Shown in pieces: positions 18,568 through 25,880 of a DNA stretch of 64,000 nucleotides. The translations under genes were made by a program, and so were the position numbers. Position 1 is the stretch's first letter; each line of letters starts with the position of its first letter. A model generated the notes under the pieces. The model did no database searches. It was given only the letters and a program-made list of their open reading frames with translations, and was not told the DNA's origin. Origin of the DNA: Chloroflexota bacterium (GTDB lineage Bacteria; Chloroflexota; Limnocylindria; P2-11E); assembly GCA_005889405.1 (NCBI GenBank), contig VBFY01000057.1, positions 17,475 through 81,474 of the forward strand, written 5' to 3'.

Positions 18568-19119
18568 GTGTGCGCGGCGCTGAACTTCGCCGCCGCGTTC
18601 GCTTTGCTCTTCGTGCTCGCGCCGGCGACGCCGCTCGTCGCCGATCCGGTGCAGCGTCTTGTCTACGTGGGTACGCATCTGCTCGAGTGGCGCCTCGGCT
18701 GGCTGACGTGGATCGCCGCGGCGCTGTCGCTTCTCTGGTTCTACTGGTGGTGGCGTGCCCGCGTGAGCGCGTCATACGTCCCCCTGATCTTCGGCGGGCT
18801 CGGACTGCTCGCCGACGTGACCGCCGAGCTCATCCTCGTCGTGGGCGGCGTCGAGACGTACATCACGATGTCGCCATTCGCATTCGCGCTCACCGGCGGG
18901 GTGGCGAACGGCCTGTATACGATCTGCGGCATCGGCCTCACGCTCGCGACCCCGCTCACCAGACGCGCGCGCGCGGTCGCAGCCGTCATGTGGGCCGCGG
19001 GCGTCGCACTCAGCGTCGGCGCGTTTCTCGATATCCCCGTCCTCACCGCGGGCGCCAGCGCGCTGTTGTTCGCGCTCTTCTGCCCCTGGTGCCTGTATCT
19101 CGCGGTGAGGTTCCGCTGA
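18568..19119 (+). CDS. hypothetical integral membrane protein
   Basis: ~184 aa, 5-6 TM helices with Trp-rich loops (LLWFYWWWRAR); GTG start 26 nt after the regulator gene. Confidence 0.5.
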   Translation: MCAALNFAAAFALLFVLAPATPLVADPVQRLVYVGTHLLEWRLGWLTWIAAALSLLWFYWWWRARVSASYVPLIFGGLGLLADVTAELILVVGGVETYITMSPFAFALTGGVANGLYTICGIGLTLATPLTRRARAVAAVMWAAGVALSVGAFLDIPVLTAGASALLFALFCPWCLYLAVRFR

Positions 19120-20051
19120 GGCGCGTCGTCGTCATCGGCGCGGGCTTCTTCGGCCGCGTGATCGCGCGCCGCCTCGCGGCTGTCGGCATCACGCCGGTGG
19201 TCGCGTCGCGATCGCGCGGCGACGTGCGCGTCGACGTCGAGGACGACCGTGCGATCCGCGAGGTCCTGCGTCGGGCCGACATCGTGATCGACGCCGTTGG
19301 GCCGTTCCAGACGCGCTCGACCCGTCTGGTCGAAGCCGCGATCGGGATCGGCTGCGACGTGGTCGACCTGTCGGACTCACTGGCCTACGCGCGCGCCGTC
19401 CTCGCGCTCCACGATCGCGCCGCGTCCGCCGGTGTGCGGCTCTTCACGTCGTGCAGCGCGATCGCGACGGTGGCCGCCTCGGCGATCCGCGCGAGCGGCG
19501 GCGCCGCGCCGGAGACCTGCGATCTCTTCCTCGCGCCGGCGTCCGCCGAGACAGCCAACCCCGCGACGGTGCGTGCGTTCCTCGCGTCCGTCGATCGGTC
19601 GCGCTCGCGCGAGTTTCCTGCCGACCGTCGGCGCGGTTATCGGGTCGAGACGGCCGCTGCGGCGCTCCTCCCGCGTTCCTGGCCGAGCCTGCGCTTCGTC
19701 GACTTCTGGGTCGATCCGAACGCGCCGTTCGCCGCGAAGTCTCTCGCGCTCGCGTCGCGGTTCGGCCTCATGAGCCTGCTGTCGGCGGTCGCGCCGCTCT
19801 CCGCGCGTGTCCTCGGCCGGCGTGAAGGCTCCTTCTCTGTCGCGCTCAGCGCCGGCGGACGCTATTCGCTCGTGCGACTCGCCGCGCCGCGCGGCAGCTA
19901 TCTCATCGCCGCGGAGCCCGCCGTGCTTGCGGCCGAGTCGCTCGCCCGCGGCGCCACGGTCGCACCCGGTGTCGTCCCGAGCGACGCGCAGGTCGATCCA
20001 ACGGCGCTCTTCACGCGTCTACGGGAGCTCGGCGTGGACGTGCGCACCTAG
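19116..20051 (+). CDS. saccharopine dehydrogenase-like NAD(P)-binding protein
   Basis: Rossmann motif VVVIGAGFFGRVIARRL; only CTG 19116 or GTG 19088 are in-frame starts near the motif. Confidence 0.55.
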   Translation: MRRVVVIGAGFFGRVIARRLAAVGITPVVASRSRGDVRVDVEDDRAIREVLRRADIVIDAVGPFQTRSTRLVEAAIGIGCDVVDLSDSLAYARAVLALHDRAASAGVRLFTSCSAIATVAASAIRASGGAAPETCDLFLAPASAETANPATVRAFLASVDRSRSREFPADRRRGYRVETAAAALLPRSWPSLRFVDFWVDPNAPFAAKSLALASRFGLMSLLSAVAPLSARVLGRREGSFSVALSAGGRYSLVRLAAPRGSYLIAAEPAVLAAESLARGATVAPGVVPSDAQVDPTALFTRLRELGVDVRT

Positions 20052-20059
20052 AGTGATGC

Positions 20060-20250
20060 TCGTGCCACGCTCGCGGACGACGTCTTGCGCGACCTCTTCG
20101 TGCGCGCTGACGCCAGCGCGCTGGATCTGCTCGCTGGGTCGCGCATGACCTGGAACGCATGGGGGACCGCATCCAGAACATCTGCGAGCGGACGGTGTAC
20201 GAGGTCACGGGCGTGATGCGCGAATTCACCTCACACGGCCCGCGCCAACC
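20060..20250 (+). pseudogene. phoU-like C-terminal remnant (frameshifted)
   Basis: Frame 2 reads ...VLRDLFVRADASALDLLAGS. Shifting -1 gives DLERMGDRIQNICERTVYEVTGVMREFTSH, matching the PhoU repeat-2 signature (LERIGDHAtNIAE.VvY.VtG). No intact ORF; only ~65 codons remain. Confidence 0.35.
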
Positions 20251-20256
20251 GGAAGA

Positions 20257-20682
20257 ATGACCCCGCTTCGAGTCCTCTTCCTCTGCACGCACAACTCCGC
20301 GCGCTCGCAGATGGCCGAGGGATTCCTGCGCGATCTCGGCGGGGATCGCTTCGAGGTCGCGAGCGCGGGCACCGAGGCGCGCGGCCTGAACCCGCTCGCG
20401 GTGCAGGCGATGGCGGAGGAAGGCATCGACATCTCGCTGCAGGAGTCGAAGACGCTCGACCGCTACACCAGCGAGCCGTTCGATCTCGTCATCACCGTGT
20501 GCGACGAGGCGAATGAGGCGTGCCCGTACTTCCCGAACGCGAAAGAGCGCCGCCACTGGTCGTTCCCGGACCCCTCCGCCGTCCAGGGCGATGACGAGAC
20601 GCGCTTCGCCGCGTTCCGTGTCGTGCGCGACGCCGTCCGCGAACGCATCGAGCGCGAGCTGCTGGCGGTGCGCGCGGGCTGA
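20257..20682 (+). CDS. arsC: arsenate reductase (LMW-PTP / thioredoxin-coupled type)
   Basis: VLFLCTHNSARSQMAE P-loop (CX5R) plus the downstream Cys pair (CDEANEACP); 141 aa. Confidence 0.85.
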   Translation: MTPLRVLFLCTHNSARSQMAEGFLRDLGGDRFEVASAGTEARGLNPLAVQAMAEEGIDISLQESKTLDRYTSEPFDLVITVCDEANEACPYFPNAKERRHWSFPDPSAVQGDDETRFAAFRVVRDAVRERIERELLAVRAG

Positions 20683-20696
20683 GGCCGGAGGCGGCC

Positions 20697-21449
20697 TCAG
20701 AACGCGATCAGCGGTCGCCACGTCCCGAGCGCCACGCTGAGAGATGTCGCGCCGGCGGCGAGCAGCAGCGCGCCCGCGACGAGCCCACCGTCGGGCAGCG
20801 TGAGCGCGCGCGGTCGAGCGAGCGTCCGGCACTCGCGCGAGCCGAAACCGCGAGCGTCCATCGCGAGCGCGAGTCGCGTCGCGCGCCGGATCGCCGCGAC
20901 GAGCAGCCCGAGCGCCCGACCCGGGAAGGCGCGGAACCGGTCGACGATCGTACGGTCGGCCTCGATGCCACGCGCGCGCCGCGCGAGACCGAGCACGTCC
21001 CATTCACGCGAGAACAGCGGGAACAGGCGGAACGCCGCGAGCGCGCCGACGACGAAGCGCGAGGGTGCATGGGCGTGCTCGACCAGCGCATCGGCGAGAT
21101 CCGTCGGGTCGATCGTCGCGACCGCGAGCATGCCCGCGAGAGAGATGCCGATGATCCGGAGCGCGATCGCGGCGCCGGCCACCGCGCTGTGCGAGAGGAG
21201 CGCGTTGAAGACGCCGAGGCTGGCCGCGCCGATGAGGAGTGGCACGGCGCGCGCGGCGAGCGAGCGCGGCGGGAGCCCGCTGAAGCGCGCGGCGACGAGC
21301 AGCGCCGCGACCACGATGCCTGAAGTGACGAGGTCGACGGTGATGAACAGCGCGAGCATGAGGACGAGCGCGGCGACGATCTTGGCGATCGGATGCGGGC
21401 GCGCGAGCGGAGCGGCCGGATCGGCGATGAGCGGCTGGAGCAGCCTCAC
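20697..21449 (-). CDS. ykoC: ECF transporter T component (CbiQ/EcfT; YkoC-like)
   Basis: ~250 aa with 5-6 TM helices and the conserved ARG..(E) region. GTG start overlaps the ATPase stop (GTGA). The rest of the 484-aa track ORF upstream is non-coding-like. Confidence 0.75.
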   Translation of the reverse strand: MRLLQPLIADPAAPLARPHPIAKIVAALVLMLALFITVDLVTSGIVVAALLVAARFSGLPPRSLAARAVPLLIGAASLGVFNALLSHSAVAGAAIALRIIGISLAGMLAVATIDPTDLADALVEHAHAPSRFVVGALAAFRLFPLFSREWDVLGLARRARGIEADRTIVDRFRAFPGRALGLLVAAIRRATRLALAMDARGFGSRECRTLARPRALTLPDGGLVAGALLLAAGATSLSVALGTWRPLIAF

Positions 21450-22876
21450 GCGGCACGACCGCCTGCTAGGCGCAGTGTCCGGTCGGCGAGCGAGGTGACG
21501 AGGTCTTCGTCGTGCGTCGCGAAGAGCGCAGCGCCGCCGCCGTCGCAGTGCGCGGCGAGGAGCGCGACGAGCTCGGCGTAGGTGCGGCGGTCCTGGCCGA
21601 AGGTCGGCTCGTCGAGCACGAGCAGGGGAGGAGCCGTCGCGAGCGCGGTCGCGACCGAGAGGCGGCGCTGCTCTCCGCCTGAAAGCGTGAACGGATTCGC
21701 GGCCGCGAGGTGGGTGAGATGCAGCCGCTCGAGGAGATCCATCGCGATCCGCCGCGCGTCCGGCGCGTAACGGCCAGCGCGCAGCGGACCGACCATGAGC
21801 TCCTCGTCGACGCGACCGGTCACGAACTGATGCTCCGGATCCTGGAAGACGGTGCCGACATGCGCGACCAGTCGTCGCGCCGGCAGCGACCACGGCTCGG
21901 CGTCCTCGAGCGCCACGCGTCCGCGCGCTGGTCGCAGCAGCCCCGCGACGAGGAGCGCGAGCGTCGACTTGCCGGAGCCGTTCGGTCCGGTCACGGCGAG
22001 GGCCTCGCCCGCGCGTACCACGAGGTCGACGCCGGCGAGCGCCCAGGTCTCCGCGCCCGGATAACGGAACGCGATGTCGTCGGCGCGCGCGAGGTCCGCG
22101 CCGAACGCCGTGCGTCGCGTCGGCGCCGCGGGCGGCGGACCGGGCACCCACACGCCGAGCTCTGCGAGCCGCGCGCCGTAGCGCGCGAACACCTCCTGCG
22201 GAGCACCGTCCGCCACGACGCCGGCGCCCGCCTCGATCACGACGACGCGATCGACGAGCGGCAGCGACTGCGCGACGCGGTGCTCGACGAGCACGAGCGT
22301 CATGGCGCTCAGGTCGGCGAGCGTTTCCCTTACCAGCTCCGCGCCGACCGGATCGAGATTCGCCGTCGGTTCGTCGAGCAGCAGCAGGCGCGGGCGGAGC
22401 GCGAGCCCTCCGGCGATCGCCAGGCGCTGCTTCTCACCGCCGGAGAGCGCCGCCGTCGGCCGGTCCTCCGGATACGGGAAGTGCACCTGCGCGAGCGCGC
22501 GGTGCACCCGCGGCCAGATCGCCTCGGTGGGGACGCAGTGATTCTCGAGACCGAACGCCACGTCGTCGCCGGCGCGCGCCATCACGAGCTGCGTCTCGGG
22601 ATCCTGGAACACGATGCCCGTCGAGTCACGCGCGTCGTGGGGCGGGCGTCCGTCGACCCGGAGCTCGCCCTCGGACTCACCGCCCCCGCTCGTGTCGAGC
22701 AGGCCGGCGAGGGCCGCGAGCAGCGTGCTCTTGCCCGCGCCCGATGCCCCGAGCAGTAGCACGCGCTCGCCGGGACGGATGCGCAGATCGAGGCCGCGGA
22801 TCGCCCAGGCCCGGCGCCCCGCGTGGCGCCAGCCCCAGCCGCGCGCTTCGATCGCCGCCCCCTCGCCGCCCGTCAC
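21446..22876 (-). CDS. ykoD: ECF transporter duplicated ATPase (fused EcfA-EcfA'; YkoD-like)
   Basis: Two complete ABC cassettes: GASGAGKST/LSGGEKQR/LLLDEPTANLD and GPNGSGKST/LSGGEQRR/LVLDEPTFGQD. Confidence 0.9.
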   Translation of the reverse strand: MTGGEGAAIEARGWGWRHAGRRAWAIRGLDLRIRPGERVLLLGASGAGKSTLLAALAGLLDTSGGGESEGELRVDGRPPHDARDSTGIVFQDPETQLVMARAGDDVAFGLENHCVPTEAIWPRVHRALAQVHFPYPEDRPTAALSGGEKQRLAIAGGLALRPRLLLLDEPTANLDPVGAELVRETLADLSAMTLVLVEHRVAQSLPLVDRVVVIEAGAGVVADGAPQEVFARYGARLAELGVWVPGPPPAAPTRRTAFGADLARADDIAFRYPGAETWALAGVDLVVRAGEALAVTGPNGSGKSTLALLVAGLLRPARGRVALEDAEPWSLPARRLVAHVGTVFQDPEHQFVTGRVDEELMVGPLRAGRYAPDARRIAMDLLERLHLTHLAAANPFTLSGGEQRRLSVATALATAPPLLVLDEPTFGQDRRTYAELVALLAAHCDGGGAALFATHDEDLVTSLADRTLRLAGGRAA

Positions 22877-22886
22877 GCGGAGGACT

Positions 22887-23468
22887 CTAGATGCGCTGCT
22901 GCGTCCTGCCTGATGGGAACTGCGCGAGGACTCCCGTCTGCACCAGCGCGCGGACCAGCCAGGCCGAGCCGATGCCCGCGATGATCACGGCGGAGACGAG
23001 CATGAACGCGCCGATGACGAGCTGATCGACCAGGGCAAGCTCGGCGTAGTAGAGCGGCGTGTCGTGGATCCACGCGCCGACCGCCGCAAGCGCCGCCGCG
23101 AGCGCCGCCGCGAAGAGATCGAAGCGCCGGTAACGGAACAATGCGAAGCCGAGCTCCGCACCCGCCCCCTGGAACAGACCCGAGAGTGCGGCGTCGAGAC
23201 CCCACTGCGATCCGAGGACGAGCGACACGCTCGCCGCGACGAGCTCCGCGAACAGCGCGGCGCCGGGTTTCTGCACGACGAGGCCCGCGACGACACCGGC
23301 GGCGAGCCAGGTGCCGTACAGGATGTTCTGCGCCGGCGGGACTGCCGCGAATGCGGGACCGGTCGCGGCCCAGAGCGCGTTCCAGGCCCAGAACACGACG
23401 CCGAACGCGACCGCGATCGCCGCCGTGACCACGATGTCGACCGTACGCCAGGACATTGACCGATTCAC
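22887..23468 (-). CDS. ykoE: ECF transporter S component (YkoE-like; thiamine/HMP-related by context)
   Basis: ~190 aa, 5-6 TM helices; GTG start (GGAGG-6nt-GTG) overlaps the TPK stop by 4 nt. It is the first gene of the S-A-T trio behind the TPP riboswitch. Confidence 0.65.
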   Translation of the reverse strand: MNRSMSWRTVDIVVTAAIAVAFGVVFWAWNALWAATGPAFAAVPPAQNILYGTWLAAGVVAGLVVQKPGAALFAELVAASVSLVLGSQWGLDAALSGLFQGAGAELGFALFRYRRFDLFAAALAAALAAVGAWIHDTPLYYAELALVDQLVIGAFMLVSAVIIAGIGSAWLVRALVQTGVLAQFPSGRTQQRI

Positions 23469-24115
23469 GCGACACCTCCAGTTGCTATTTCGATGACGAG
23501 CAGCACGCCCCGGTCGCACGCGACCGAAGCGGGCCGAGACATCACGACGTTCGAGAGGCCGCGAGCCGCGCCGAAGGGCAGCGTCTCACCGGCCAGCGCG
23601 TAGCGAAGACCCTGCGTGCGTACGCCCTCGGCGTTGCCGCGCAGTGCGAGCAGGGTGACGACATCGCCGACGCTCCCAGCGAGCTCTAGGTGCTCGCCTC
23701 CATGCAGCGGCCGCGCGACGACGTTGCCGTGCACGGCACGCAGTCCGCGCCCGCGGTACGCGTCGTCGGCGAGGAGCAGCGTGTTCGCGAGCTCGTGGTC
23801 GAAGCGCTCTCCGCCGAAGATCCCGAGCAGCACGATGTCGTCTGGCTTCGTCTTCAGCACATGTGCGACAGCGAGCTCCAGATCGGACTCGTCCTTCTCA
23901 GGGGAGAACGGCAGCACCGTGACGCCTCGGGCGCTGAACTCTGCGGCGCGCTCGAGCCCCAGCGAGTCGAGATCGCCGACGATCGCGTGGGGAAGGACAT
24001 CCCACCGCTCGAGCGCGAGCGTGCCGCCGTTCGCCGCGACGATGAGGTCCGCGCCCTTCAGCTCGGCGCGGTCGCGCGGATCGACGTCGCCGTGAGCGAC
24101 CACGACGGCCTTCAA
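23465..24115 (-). CDS. thiN: thiamine pyrophosphokinase
   Basis: MKAVVVAHGD..., IVAANGG, DLDS and KDESDLELA motifs; TTG start right after the riboswitch terminator. Confidence 0.8.
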   Translation of the reverse strand: MKAVVVAHGDVDPRDRAELKGADLIVAANGGTLALERWDVLPHAIVGDLDSLGLERAAEFSARGVTVLPFSPEKDESDLELAVAHVLKTKPDDIVLLGIFGGERFDHELANTLLLADDAYRGRGLRAVHGNVVARPLHGGEHLELAGSVGDVVTLLALRGNAEGVRTQGLRYALAGETLPFGAARGLSNVVMSRPASVACDRGVLLVIEIATGGVA

Positions 24116-24120
24116 TGAAC

Positions 24121-24146
24121 AAAAAAGCGGCGCATCCGAGCGCCGC
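24121..24146 (-). terminator. riboswitch expression-platform intrinsic terminator
   Basis: Minus strand: GCGGCGC-UCGGAU-GCGCCGC followed by UUUUUU, 5 nt before the thiN TTG start. Confidence 0.6.
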
Positions 24147-24161
24147 AGCGAGGTCTCACGC

Positions 24162-24251
24162 GTTCCGACTCCCTACGCTGACATTACTCAGATCAGGTTC
24201 TGGGGTCTGCGGATCACCGCACTCTCAGCGCCCGTGGGCGCTCCCCCGTCG
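24162..24251 (-). promoter_or_regulatory. TPP (THI-box) riboswitch aptamer
   Basis: Minus strand: GGGGAGCGCC...CUGAGA...ACCCCAGAACCUGAUCUGAGUAAUGUCAGCGUAGGGAG. This matches GGGG.GCC / CUGAGA / ACCC / GAACCUGAUCUGGAUAAUGCCAGCGUAGGGA nearly base for base. Confidence 0.85.
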
Positions 24252-24349
24252 TATTCAGTTGTCGCCCTCAGTGTACGCGCGTAGCTCCTGACACGCGAAC
24301 GCGGACGCACGGCGACGATGCCGCACGTCCGCGATGCGACCGCGTGGTG

Positions 24350-24472
24350 TTAGGCGGCCTTCGCCTCAGCGACCTTCTTGACCGTCTTGATATGGACGAC
24401 CTCGGCCTTCGTGGGGGCGATGAGCCACGCCACCACCAGGACCGCGAACGACGCGAAGGCTGCGAGTTCCAT
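24350..24472 (-). CDS. 40-aa single-TM peptide immediately downstream of amt
   Basis: MELAAFASFAVLVVAWLIAPTKAEVVHIKTVKKVAEAKAA; AGGGAGG SD 5 nt before the ATG, 12 nt after the amt stop; below the track cutoff. Confidence 0.4.
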   Translation of the reverse strand: MELAAFASFAVLVVAWLIAPTKAEVVHIKTVKKVAEAKAA

Positions 24473-24484
24473 CTCGACCTCCCT

Positions 24485-25714
24485 TTAGATCGTGTACGCG
24501 GCTTCGCGGTGCTGCGACGCGTCGAGTCCGAGGACTTCCTCATCCTCCGGCACGCGCAGTCCGACGAAGACATCGATGAGCTTCAGGATCACGAAGGTCA
24601 TGACCGCGGAGTACGTCACCGAGGCGAGGACGGCGACCGCCTGCACTCCGAGCTGCGCCGGGTTGCCGAAGGCGAGGCCGTCGGCCGCGCCCGCGTTCAC
24701 CGCCACGGTGGCGAAGATGCCGGTCGCGAGCGCACCCCACATGCCGCCGATGCCGTGCACGCCGAAGACGTCGAGAGCGTCGTCGACCTTCAGTCGCTTC
24801 GTGAGCTGGATCCCGACGTAACAGAAGGTGCCGGCTCCGAGACCGATGAGGATCGCGGCGGACACGTCCACGTAGCCGGACGCCGGGGTGATCGCGACGA
24901 GTCCGGCAACCGCGCCGGCCGCGGCACCGAGCACGCTTGGCGCGCCCTTGTGCAGCCAGGACACGGTCATCCAGGTGAGCGCGGCCATGGCGGCCGCGGT
25001 GTTCGTGACGACGAACGCGTTGGCCGCGAGGCCACCGGCGTTGATCGCGCTGCCCGCGTTGAAGCCGAACCAGCCGAACCAGAGCAGCGACGCGCCGAGG
25101 ACGGTCATGGTCGCGTCGTGTGGCTCTATCGGCTCGAGGCCGAGACCCTTGCGCCGACCGAGCACGAGCGCGGCGACGAGCGCGGAGACCCCGCTGGTGA
25201 TGTGCACCACGGTGCCGCCGGCGAAGTCAAGCGTGCCGAGCATCTTGAGCCAGCCACCGGTGCCCCAGACCCAGTGCGCGACAGGGTCGTACACGAACGT
25301 CGCCCAGAGAAGCGTGAACACCACGAACGCCTTGAAGCGCTTGCGCTCGGCGAACGCGCCGGTGATGAGCGCGGGCGTGATGACGGCGAACATCATCTGG
25401 AAGACCATGAACCCGAGGTGGGGAACAGTCGGCGCGTAATCGGGGTTCGGCGTCTGTCCGACGCCCCGAAGCGATAGCCAATCGAGCCCCCCGATGAGAC
25501 CGCCGTGATCAGGACCGAACGCCAGCGAGTACCCCCACAGCACCCACTGCACGCTGATCAAGCACAGGATGAAGAAGCTGTGCATGATCGTCGCGAGGAC
25601 GTTCTTGCGGCGAACGAGCCCGCCGTAGAAGAAGCCGAGCGCGGGCGTCATGAGCATGACCAGGGCAGCGGACGCGAGGAGCCAGGCGGTGTCCCCGGCG
25701 TTGATGTTCTCCAT
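24485..25714 (-). CDS. amt: ammonium transporter
   Basis: Amt/MEP family: MENINAGDTAWLL..., 11 TM helices, FGFNAGSA and twin-His context. Start taken at the ATG of MENIN (track ORF extends upstream in frame). Confidence 0.9.
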   Translation of the reverse strand: MENINAGDTAWLLASAALVMLMTPALGFFYGGLVRRKNVLATIMHSFFILCLISVQWVLWGYSLAFGPDHGGLIGGLDWLSLRGVGQTPNPDYAPTVPHLGFMVFQMMFAVITPALITGAFAERKRFKAFVVFTLLWATFVYDPVAHWVWGTGGWLKMLGTLDFAGGTVVHITSGVSALVAALVLGRRKGLGLEPIEPHDATMTVLGASLLWFGWFGFNAGSAINAGGLAANAFVVTNTAAAMAALTWMTVSWLHKGAPSVLGAAAGAVAGLVAITPASGYVDVSAAILIGLGAGTFCYVGIQLTKRLKVDDALDVFGVHGIGGMWGALATGIFATVAVNAGAADGLAFGNPAQLGVQAVAVLASVTYSAVMTFVILKLIDVFVGLRVPEDEEVLGLDASQHREAAYTI

Positions 25715-25787
25715 GCCGCTAGCCTGCGCAGCCGGCGTAGGGCGGTCAGTAGCGCAACGGGAGCGGTCGGTTTCGGTTGGGTTGTGG

Positions 25788-25831
25788 GCGCCGCGCAAAG
25801 GCCGCGGGACTGGCAGACCTTTGCGCGGCGC
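25788..25831. promoter_or_regulatory. 14-bp perfect inverted repeat upstream of amt
   Basis: GCGCCGCGCAAAGG-(16 nt)-CCTTTGCGCGGCGC, ~75-115 nt upstream of the amt start. No U-tract on either strand, so not a simple terminator. Confidence 0.4.
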
Positions 25832-25880
25832 GGGAACTAGTGTCGGATCACTGCGGCGTGGGCGAAGCCACACGCCAAGC

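Follow-up and report, generated by a model that had tools for sequence, protein, structure and literature searches.

We identified, in a genome of the soil lineage 'Candidatus Limnocylindria' (Chloroflexota), a TPP OFF-riboswitch that precedes the four genes of a thiamine salvage operon. The element lies on the minus strand of the 64-kb stretch of DNA that was analysed as a whole (hereafter, the window), and we regard the identification of the aptamer and of the operon as practically certain. Taken as a whole, the observations are probably best explained by a TPP OFF-riboswitch whose expression platform combines a terminator with a uORF. The parts of this account differ in strength and are graded separately below.

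The thiamine salvage operon

The operon consists of the following genes:

23465..24115, minus strand: thiamine pyrophosphokinase (TPK; 'thiN'/yloS type), 216 aa, TTG start, without a Shine-Dalgarno (SD) sequence; TIGR01378, PF04263, PF04265
22887..23468, minus strand: ECF S component, YkoE family, 193 aa, GTG start; PF09819, 136 bits
21446..22876, minus strand: fused double ABC ATPase (YkoD-like), 476 aa; two PF00005 domains
20697..21449, minus strand: ECF T component (YkoC/CbiQ-like), 250 aa, GTG start; PF02361, 75 bits

A preliminary description of this DNA had named these genes as a thiamine pyrophosphokinase followed by a YkoEDC-type ECF transporter, and the family assignments listed above bear this out. 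The TPK scores 136.8 bits against the TIGR01378 equivalog (cutoff 76.4), and PF04263 and PF04265 represent its catalytic and B1-binding domains. The name 'thiN' is ambiguous, as it denotes the TPK of B. subtilis and also an archaeal thiamine-phosphate synthase domain. The fused ATPase matches TIGR01166 (cbiO) with 271 bits against a cutoff of 211.8. The S, ATPase and T components are encoded together in one operon, so that the transporter has its own ATPase and T component, as in the group I (dedicated) ECF transporters of the YkoEDC type.

The genes are tightly packed. The 4-nt overlaps described earlier are present at two junctions, where the GTG starts of the S and T components overlap the stops of the TPK and the ATPase, respectively, as GTGA; at the third junction there is instead a gap, the ATPase starting 10 nt past the S-component stop. 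The S component has an SD of its own, GGAGG, 6 nt upstream of its start. The T component is the last gene of the operon, the end of which is adjoined by a convergent ArsC-like gene (20257..20682, plus strand).

The S component matches the thiamine-bound structure of B. subtilis YkoE (PDB 5EDL) over residues 6-188 with E = 4.1e-17. In YkoE, which binds thiamine with a Kd of ~4.5 nM, the ligand is coordinated by Tyr46, Trp49, Glu77, Gln95 and Asp131, and the E77A mutation lowers affinity only 2-5 fold (PMC5037267). Four of these residues (Tyr46, Trp49, Gln95 and Asp131) are kept in the S component of the window and Glu77 is replaced by Ser. A MAFFT alignment of 18 Chloroflexota S-component homologues revealed that Trp49, Gln95 and Asp131 are invariant, and that positions 46 and 77 vary. 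Because of the match to 5EDL, the nanomolar thiamine binding of YkoE and the three conserved pocket residues, the operon fits a pathway in which thiamine is taken up and then pyrophosphorylated, with feedback by TPP, which is the coupling that had been suggested for it. An earlier study describes Chloroflexi as auxotrophic for thiamin and as having transporters under TPP regulation (PMC3766115).

The TPP aptamer and the 5' region of the leader

Upstream of the TPK, the leader carries these features:

24153..24257, minus strand: TPP riboswitch aptamer (THI element), RF00059, with P1 strands CGAC (24251..24248) and GUCG (24169..24166)
24252..24262, minus strand: 5' tail ACAACUGAAUA, immediately upstream of P1, nearly invariant
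24270..24275, minus strand: putative -10 promoter box TACACT, a TAnnnT hexamer found at one aligned position in 13 orthologous leaders

We ran cmscan on the 64-kb window against all 4227 Rfam families, and RF00059 was the sole match in the window. It extends over the full length of the model (1-105) from 24257 to 24153 on the minus strand, and scores 67.7 bits where the gathering score is 54.3, with E = 3.7e-11. The TPP riboswitch proposed earlier is thus confirmed by the Rfam comparison that had been suggested for it, and all of the motifs quoted then for a near-consensus THI-box on the minus strand are present. The 5' limit of the site was then set at 24251, and the RF00059 match reaches 6 nt further. 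Each of the 26 Chloroflexota genome loci with TPK-ykoEDC has an RF00059 aptamer (59-74 bits), and in the window as in all 26 loci the aptamer forms the same-strand 5' leader of these genes. These conclusions rest on Rfam, as a regex screen for THI-boxes overlooked 13 real aptamers that Rfam recovered. Both the aptamer and its regulon are of kinds already known.

The 5' tail ACAACUGAAUA is at least 90% conserved in an alignment of 100 sequences, even though it lies mostly outside the paired core of the aptamer. A promoter scan found no consensus sigma-70 -35/-10 pair. The TAnnnT hexamer is flanked by sequence that varies among the 13 orthologous leaders, and transcription may start approximately 7-8 nt downstream of TACACT. 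The MFE fold of the whole leader is uninformative (z = -1.26), as pairing of the flanks dominates it.

A terminator within a conserved open frame

Between the aptamer and the TPK we identified the following elements:

24169..24174, minus strand: AGGGAG, proposed SD of the uORF, spanning the 3' strand of aptamer P4, the junction and the first P1 nucleotide
24112..24159, minus strand: uORF, GUG...UGA, 15 codons (MRPRCGARMRRFFVH*), spanning the whole terminator and U-tract
24127..24146, minus strand: terminator hairpin GCGGCGC-UCGGAU-GCGCCGC, 7 G-C pairs and a 6-nt loop
24121..24126, minus strand: U6 tract, directly after the hairpin

The hairpin and U-tract (24146..24121) are those of the terminator-type platform described earlier. 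They form the only terminator-like site between 19000 and 25500, a single match that proves little alone because the scan is expected to return 1.3 such sites by chance; the real support is conservation. To describe it we used 84 unique related leaders from about 100 relatives, gathered with a search pattern that fixes the aptamer strand. All 84 keep a hairpin (mean dG -14.8 kcal/mol), and in 81 of them the 8 nt past the stem include 6 or more T, in a lineage whose DNA is 68.5% GC; the window itself is 15.4% T. Leader L012 has a different hairpin and a poor U-tract.

The uORF begins 6 nt past P1 with GUG 24159, 9 nt downstream of AGGGAG, and in the window its stop UGA shares UUGA with the start of the TPK. 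All 14 genome leaders have an open +1 frame between the aptamer and the corresponding NUGA, and 81 of the 84 unique leaders have an intact frame, with no internal stops and with the NUGA overlap. In the three exceptions the uORF ends 4 nt before the TPK start or is fused in frame to the TPK, and all three would still deliver ribosomes to the TPK start. The uORF varies in length from 42 to 171 nt, and of the 19 distinct lengths that occur, 16 are divisible by 3 (binomial P = 7.3e-6), a value to be read with the reservation that the classes are not fully independent phylogenetically and that some spacer insertions are repeat-like and could be multiples of 3 by chance. Stop codons are depleted in the uORF frame, with 2 in 1554 codons, but one other frame, with 8 in 1551, comes only modestly behind.

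The start codon of the uORF is GUG in 74 leaders and AUG in 10, and this post-aptamer codon is the universal uORF start. We also considered the AUG in the hairpin loop (24135) as the start; it is in frame in the clade of the window and missing from the whole clade with loop UCAG, and was rejected. The two main clades read the hairpin in different frames (..MRRFF.. and ..APLLF..), which means that conservation of the RNA hairpin and that of the open frame do not depend on each other. The uORFs encode 70 distinct peptides, which are conserved only where the RNA hairpin dictates their sequence. A functional leader peptide was rejected for this reason, and the 70 peptides contain neither conserved regulatory codons nor a peptide that could sense tRNA or nucleotide supply. 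Conservation of the frame, together with the homologous start sites described below, suggests that the uORF is translated.

The TTG start of the TPK (24115..24113), 5 nt past the U-tract as described earlier, is real, since ATG (51 leaders), GTG (21) and TTG (12) alternate at this position in the orthologues. An internal GTG at 24103, preceded by the SD-like GAAGG, was rejected as the TPK start; it is GTC or GTT in leaders L009, L011 and L005, and conservation of the protein begins at codon 1. No SD-like motif is found 4-17 nt upstream of the TPK in 82 of 84 leaders, which extends to the relatives the earlier observation of a TTG without SD, and the conserved overlapping uORF is the likely reason for this absence. 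The preliminary description had also suggested translational control from the closeness of the start to the U-tract. The suggestion was a good one, but this basis for it does not hold: the closeness is not conserved, and in relatives the TPK starts 34 to 160 nt past the end of the aptamer.

Relatives with other architectures

The presence of AGGGAG is not by itself evidence for an SD, because the motif is a universal part of TPP aptamers. In ten relatives, however, a gene itself begins at the post-aptamer codon: in L110, L116 and L120 this gene is the TPK, in seven loci it is the S component, and AGGGAG lies 8-9 nt before the codon. Seven of these ten direct-start loci were checked, and all seven have full RF00059 matches. 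In the window, AGGGAG would by the same spacing act as the SD of the uORF.

Loci of the related architectures B and C, like the distant Chloroflexota loci, have either such a direct start or SD-sequestering hairpins; they lack a U-tract and are purely translational. For example, in the Chloroflexota TPK-ykoEDC loci L017-L059 a hairpin (CCUCUGUCC/GGACGGAGG) masks the canonical GGAGG SD of the TPK itself, and both uORF and U-tract are missing. These loci carry the same cargo as the lineage of the window, with a separate hairpin in place of the aptamer's AGGGAG, the uORF and the terminator.

Proposed mechanism

We propose that a single initiation event, gated by TPP, underlies regulation of the operon. 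With TPP bound, the aptamer would close, AGGGAG would be buried in P4/P1 and the GUG would lie 6 nt from a stable P1. Initiation at the uORF would be prevented by blocked ribosome loading, the terminator would fold by default and transcription would stop in the U-tract; any read-through mRNA would remain untranslated for the TPK. Without TPP, a ribosome would initiate at GUG 24159 and block or melt the terminator stem, allowing RNA polymerase to read through. On reaching UUGA it would terminate and reinitiate on the TPK, and the S component would be served by its own SD.

We are fairly confident in one part of this scheme, the relay by which a translated uORF passes ribosomes to the TPK, where the missing SD and the overlapping frame point to termination-reinitiation. 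Suppression of the terminator by uORF translation involves a further step. In the window the start-to-stem distance is 13 nt, so that the stem begins at +14 when the first base of the GUG is counted as +1; this is the leading edge of an initiating ribosome, and for this reason the ribosome would be expected to block or melt it. The spacing from the uORF start to the stem is 13 nt in 56 leaders, 16 nt in 26 and 82 nt in two. That 82 of 84 leaders keep one of the two short distances speaks for a physical coupling between ribosome and terminator, and the steric argument is loosened by the 66-nt insertion that two leaders carry between the uORF start and the terminator. We put forward only tentatively, at somewhat under an even chance, the idea that the ribosome itself is the antiterminator. 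The same degree of caution applies to its corollary, that there may be no RNA antiterminator and that one TPP-gated initiation, with its SD inside the aptamer core, could set both read-through and downstream translation. As part of this reading, the direct starts and SD-sequestering hairpins of related lineages might be simpler ancestral forms, a suggestion we hold just as loosely.

Alternative explanations

The strongest competitor separates the two functions. Here an RNA antiterminator would govern the terminator, and the uORF would act only as a TPP-gated reinitiation relay to the SD-less TPK on full-length mRNAs, with no interplay between ribosome and terminator. All of the evidence for the uORF applies equally to this arrangement, as do the predicted pairings between the aptamer and the 5' arm of the terminator that are described below. 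The variants with the 66-nt insertion, whose start lies 82 nt from the stem, retain both elements, and the ppe2 precedent in Mycobacterium tuberculosis is purely translational (PMC11260477). On the other hand, the statistical support for an RNA antiterminator is weak, and the 13- or 16-nt spacing noted above suggests that the ribosome and the stem are physically coupled. We judge two independent layers to be rather unlikely, although an explanation to be taken seriously. It overlaps largely with the scheme proposed above, from which it differs in one inferred step.

A transcriptional TPP riboswitch made of RNA only might also be considered, as many TPP switches of the B. subtilis type use RNA antiterminator/terminator switching. 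Without TPP, the aptamer would pair with the 5' arm and loop of the terminator, and with TPP the terminator would form; the open frame would be a by-product, and the TPK would be translated independently of an SD on a U-rich leader. Folding the leader without the 3' arm of the terminator indeed pairs AUCUGAGU..CAGCG..AGG of aptamer P4/P5 with CCU..CGCUG..GCUCGGAU, and in nearly all of 60 platform types the predicted partner of the 5' arm lies in the aptamer and is never local. This partner of the 5' arm and loop is the P4/P5 strand in most platform types and the 5' strand of P2 in some; of the two candidate antiterminators, one joins the P4/P5 strand to linker, 5' arm and loop, and the other pairs GAGCGCC of P2 with GGCGCUC. 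The 5' arm and loop are highly conserved in sequence, and a G to A change in the loop of L014 and L011 converts a U.G pair of the antiterminator helix to U-A. Were the predicted antiterminator to form, it would also take up the AGG of the proposed uORF SD.

Against these pairings, 25% of shuffled linkers give a gain as large as that of the antiterminator (-4.2 kcal/mol), and in the ligand-free ensemble it is the terminator that is predicted to dominate (P = 0.92). A mechanism of RNA only also leaves unexplained the keeping of the frame in 16 of 19 spacer length classes, the constant post-aptamer GUG or AUG, the end of the frame at or within 4 nt of the TPK start, the missing SD in 82 of 84 leaders, and the real genes that start at the same post-aptamer codon in ten relatives. 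A classical RNA antiterminator might act alone, as far as the folding models go, but we consider this improbable.

Least plausible of all, and in our view very improbable, is that the hairpin and U-run are a translational element only, which for instance masks the loop AUG or slows ribosomes in a purely translational regulation: the hairpin does lie within a probably translated frame, and the platforms of architectures B and C and of the distant Chloroflexota loci act on translation only, but a GC stem with at least 6 T in 8 nt in 81 of 84 leaders, in a lineage so rich in GC and with the RNA kept across two registers, is the signature of an intrinsic terminator, and the loop AUG is missing from a whole clade.

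Discussion

TPP control of thiamine transport in Chloroflexi is already known, as is the transporter family, and the new part of the system described here is its expression platform. TPP riboswitches of the B. subtilis type were reportedly described by Rodionov and colleagues in 2002 with intrinsic terminators, among them the THI-box upstream of ykoFEDC. The leader in the window resembles that element in its aptamer family, in the TPP feedback on transport of thiamine or its precursors, in the hairpin with U-tract and in the YkoE/D/C-type ECF cargo. It differs in that the TPK comes first, there is no ykoF, and the terminator lies inside a conserved uORF; moreover, an RNA-only antiterminator is without statistical support here. 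In the translational TPP riboswitch of E. coli thiM, TPP binding hides the ribosome-binding site, as is proposed here for the uORF.

The terminator enclosed by the uORF (24159..24112), with its hairpin and U6, recalls E. coli pyrBI, where a leader ORF overlaps an intrinsic terminator and a ribosome close behind RNA polymerase can prevent the hairpin from forming. Unlike in pyrBI, what conveys the signal would be the start of translation of the leader ORF, under control of the ligand, and not the speed of ribosome or polymerase, and there are no regulatory codons.

An experimental precedent for the relay is the B12 riboswitch of M. tuberculosis ppe2, which gates the uORF uPPE2; this overlaps the main ORF by NUGA, and the main ORF, lacking an SD, needs termination-reinitiation (Kipkorir et al. 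2024, PMC11260477). A riboswitch, a short uORF, a 4-nt NUGA overlap and an SD-less main ORF are common to both leaders, the uORF of the window being a predicted one. The two differ in ligand, TPP instead of B12, and in phylum, and in the window a terminator is embedded in the uORF and the proposed SD lies in the aptamer core. The ppe2 uORF is without an intrinsic terminator, and mycobacterial intrinsic terminators have been described as rare (PMC11260477). In the literature searched, no bacterial TPP riboswitch combined with a uORF or leader peptide turned up as a direct precedent, which does not prove that none exists.

A related design is found among synthetic devices. Folliard et al. (2017, PMC5496857) describe 'ribo-attenuators' in which a riboswitch drives a short ORF translationally coupled to a gene of interest. 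These are engineered, while the element in the window is natural and conserved and includes a terminator in addition.

The platform described here thus comprises a uORF that runs from the edge of the aptamer, encloses the terminator and overlaps an SD-less first gene, and about 100 natural variants of it are in hand. If the proposed scheme is true, the relay recently described for M. tuberculosis, from riboswitch to uORF, would have a counterpart with a different ligand and in a different phylum, and would be linked to intrinsic termination. The leader would also provide a compact natural test case for riboswitches read out by transcription-translation coupling, and engineered 'ribo-attenuators' could be modelled on it. 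For the organism, the operon offers a picture of thiamine salvage, by import and direct pyrophosphorylation, in an abundant, uncultured soil lineage.

The riboswitch, its terminator and the operon

We identified a full-length TPP riboswitch (RF00059) at 24257..24153 on the minus strand (cmscan, 67.7 bits against a gathering threshold of 54.3, E = 3.7e-11), the sole match above gathering in the whole window among all 4227 Rfam families. The sequence quoted for a THI-box in the preliminary description is present on this strand (23900..24500 read), and the hairpin with six U residues that it placed 5 nt before a TTG codon was also recovered. The same scans that identified the downstream genes (Pfam and NCBIfam) returned all four predicted members of the operon, beginning with thiamine pyrophosphokinase (TPK).

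Features of the terminator and operon
24146..24127 (-): terminator hairpin GCGGCGC-UCGGAU-GCGCCGC (consensus terminator scan)
24126..24121 (-): UUUUUU tract directly 3' of the terminator hairpin
24115..23465 (-): TPK; TIGR01378 equivalog, 136.8 bits (cutoff 76.4); PF04263 and PF04265
23468..22887 (-): ECF S component; PF09819, YkoE family, 136 bits
22876..21446 (-): ATPase of 476 aa with two ABC domains; TIGR01166
21449..20697 (-): CbiQ-type T component; PF02361

The hairpin and its U-tract are the one terminator-like site found by the consensus scan in 19000..25500. About 1.3 sites are expected there by chance and the single site alone is not significant, so support for the terminator comes from its conservation in relatives. 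Among 84 unique aptamer-to-TPK leaders, obtained from metagenome contigs scanned with an aptamer 3' pattern, the hairpin is present in all 84 (mean dG -14.8 kcal/mol), and at least six of the 8 nt that follow it are T in 81; the window is 68.5% GC and 15% T. This conserved hairpin with its T-rich tail is the sequence signature of an intrinsic terminator.

The operon comprises four genes, as the next gene, an ArsC-like ORF, is convergent. GTGA overlaps occur at the TPK/S and ATPase/T junctions, where the 4-nt overlaps previously claimed are correct; the S and ATPase genes are separated by a 10-nt gap. A 7-bp GC hairpin (GAGGCCG-CCUC-CGGCCUC, 20681..20698) lies between the stop codon of the T-component gene (TGA 20699..20697) and the ArsC-like gene, which ends at 20682. 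The hairpin has a U-tract on neither strand and may be a bidirectional operon-end structure.

Upstream of the riboswitch, a small ORF (24350..24472, minus strand, 40 aa) with a strong Shine-Dalgarno (SD) sequence, GGGAGG, lies 12 nt beyond amt (25873..24485), which encodes an ammonium transporter. Its hydrophobic product (MELAAFASFAVLVVAWLIAPTKAEVVHIKTVKKVAEAKAA) is conserved in 10 related loci, suggesting an amt-linked small membrane protein that has escaped annotation. It is followed by a GC-rich hairpin, GCGGACGUGCGGC-AUCGUC-GCCGUGCGUCCGC (~24301..24333, minus strand, ~13 pairs including G.U), which as read by eye has no U-tract; the amt transcript probably ends at this structure, shortly before the riboswitch promoter. 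A 5' tail, ACAACUGAAUA (24252..24262, minus strand), adjoins aptamer helix P1 upstream. Across 100 leaders its conservation is at least 90%, even though most of it falls beyond the paired core of the aptamer; we found neither a pairing partner nor a function for it.

Distribution and predicted substrate

The window belongs to the soil lineage ‘Candidatus Limnocylindria’ (Chloroflexota). A TPK protein query of the genome collection yielded 60 loci. RF00059 lies directly upstream of TPK in 13 of the 14 close loci, and the one without it (L013) also lacks the transporter. The aptamer is likewise present in 13/13 more distant Chloroflexota loci with the TPK-S-ATPase-T order, and thus in all 26 genome loci with this arrangement. 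The regulon is not new, as earlier work had already described TPP control of thiamin transporters in auxotrophic Chloroflexi (PMC3766115). In four Bacillota loci (L020, L038, L039 and L040) a TPP riboswitch precedes a ThiXYZ-like ABC transporter (permease, NMT1/THI5-like binding protein and ATPase) with TPK as the last gene; TPK and a transporter thus come together again under a THI-box, here with a transporter of an unrelated class.

The S component matches one solved structure only, Bacillus subtilis YkoE (5EDL, E = 4e-17), whose crystal structure contains thiamine and which has a Kd of ~4.5 nM for it; Trp49, Glu77 and Gln95 contact the pyrimidine ring, and Tyr46 and Asp131 the thiazole (PMC5037267). 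Alignment to 18 Chloroflexota homologues shows no variation at Trp49, Gln95 and Asp131; the window protein retains Tyr46 and has Ser in place of Glu77. Given this match and the retained thiamine-contacting residues, the most economical reading is that the operon imports thiamine and pyrophosphorylates it directly to TPP, in agreement with the coupling of TPP sensing to uptake originally proposed. The residues at the positions equivalent to Tyr46 and Glu77 apparently change together: L010 and L014 combine Asp with Glu, and the other sequences combine Tyr/Ser with Ser/Ala. This may reflect alternative ligand contacts or a shifted substrate preference.

A conserved upstream frame overlapping the TPK start

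TTG 24115..24113 opens a TPK ORF of 216 aa. In orthologues this codon alternates between ATG, GTG and TTG at one position (51, 21 and 12 of the 84 leaders), protein conservation begins there, and an internal GTG (24103), rejected as the start, is not conserved as such; the TTG start is therefore real. As the preliminary description noted, it lacks an SD: no SD-like motif occurs 4-17 nt upstream of TPK in 82/84 leaders. The next gene in the window, for the S component, has GGAGG. The closeness of the U-tract to the start codon, noticed in the preliminary description, is not the conserved feature, as the distance from the aptamer end to TPK varies from 34 to 160 nt across relatives.

What is conserved is an open frame. 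In 14/14 genome leaders, the frame at +1 to TPK stays open from within the aptamer until it reaches a UGA overlapping the TPK start (NUGA). Every one of the 84 leaders has a start codon (GUG 74, AUG 10) 8-11 nt after the aptamer motif AGGGAG (24169..24174 in the window), and in 81 it is in frame with the NUGA stop with no internal stop. In the window this upstream ORF (uORF) is:

GUG 24159 to UGA 24112 (-): uORF crossing the terminator, encoding MRPRCGARMRRFFVH and a stop

The start-to-NUGA distance takes 19 distinct values from 42 to 171 nt, of which 16 are multiples of 3 (binomial P = 7.3e-6); in leaders whose overall length does not divide by 3, the indel falls before the GUG. Two of the three exceptional uORFs stop 4 nt short of the TPK start, and the third is an in-frame fusion with TPK. 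The encoded peptides, 14-57 aa long and with 70 variants, show conservation only in the part imposed by the hairpin. This hairpin is read in a different register in each of the two main clades (..MRRFF.. vs ..APLLF..), so hairpin and open frame are conserved independently. Between U-tract and TPK start, several relatives (L009, L096, L118 and others) have inserted GC-rich palindromes that resemble repeats (for example GCAGGGGGAGAACCCCCUGC, at times duplicated); they look like small mobile or REP-like elements, and the uORF frame is kept in almost all.

Initiation after the aptamer and alternative platforms

Ten relatives with this aptamer lineage have one of two simpler architectures, in which a gene begins directly at the post-aptamer position. 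In L110, L116 and L120 this gene is TPK, whose ORF starts at a GUG or UUG located 5-6 nt beyond GGGAGUCG, and both the hairpin and the uORF are absent. In another seven loci it is the S-component gene, which starts there at AUG and is followed by the ATPase and T genes. Full RF00059 matches were obtained in the 7/7 tested, and the expected downstream genes at 10/10 (tblastn). As real genes begin there, ribosomes initiate at the post-aptamer codon, with aptamer-internal sequence, most plausibly AGGGAG, as the putative SD. L116 (contig Ga0207684_10000024) retains the amt, small ORF, riboswitch and TPK order, but ykoEDC does not follow TPK; the opposite strand instead carries a distinct ECF-like T/ATPase pair. 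The arrangement resembles a clean deletion of uORF and terminator together with loss of the transporter.

A third platform occurs in distant Chloroflexota with TPK-ykoEDC (L017, L018, L021, L025-L028, L032, L034, L042, L043, L057 and L059), where the canonical GGAGG SD and the GUG start codon of TPK are masked by a hairpin, CCUCUGUCC/GGACGGAGG, whose 5' arm complements the P1 5' strand GGACAGGGG and which is not followed by a U-tract. The aptamer and cargo are the same and the platform differs, so the expression platform has turned over.

Proposed mechanism

We propose that at high TPP the closed aptamer would occlude AGGGAG and GUG and prevent ribosome loading; the terminator would fold by default and stop transcription, and any read-through mRNA would be silent for TPK. 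At low TPP, a ribosome loading at GUG would prevent or unwind the terminator, read through the uORF, terminate at UUGA and reinitiate on TPK. The S component would be translated from its own SD. Strong comparative evidence supports the aptamer and operon layer as well as the uORF, both its existence and its predicted role as a relay; that the ribosome suppresses the terminator is our inference.

The terminator stem starts 13 nt downstream of the first base of the uORF start codon in 56 leaders and 16 nt downstream in 26. Initiating ribosomes give a toeprint at +15/+16, so that stem onset would coincide with their leading edge. Two metagenomic leaders of 119 nt carry a 66-nt in-frame insertion between uORF start and terminator, making this distance 82 nt, and L075 has a similar insertion. 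These variants could separate steric from translational effects on the terminator.

Alternatively, an antiterminator made of RNA alone is possible: when nascent RNA is folded without the 3' arm, the terminator 5' arm and loop pair with the aptamer, the partner being the P4/P5 strand for the majority of platform types and the 5' strand of P2 for some others (in our leader alignment, gathered by the aptamer 3' pattern, the aptamer strand is fixed by the search). However, the energy gain of -4.2 kcal/mol is equalled by 25% of dinucleotide-shuffled linkers, and the terminator forms with probability 0.92 in the ligand-free full leader; the pairing is thus not supported beyond chance.

The closest experimental precedent for the ribosome-mediated relay is the Mycobacterium tuberculosis ppe2 B12 riboswitch, where a uORF with an AUGA overlap is required for SD-less PPE2 expression by termination-reinitiation (PMC11260477). 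Both systems share a riboswitch-controlled uORF, an NUGA-type overlap and an SD-less main ORF, but ppe2 lacks the intrinsic terminator. Synthetic ‘ribo-attenuators’ share the coupling idea (PMC5496857). No bacterial TPP riboswitch with such a uORF was described in the literature searched.

Overall, the preliminary observation and its main interpretation are correct, and its suspicion of translational control is consistent with the uORF overlapping the TPK start. The aptamer and regulon are ordinary. What is new, and well supported by sequence comparison, is a variation on a known type of expression platform, with an aptamer-embedded putative SD, a terminator-spanning uORF and a predicted NUGA relay to an SD-less gene.
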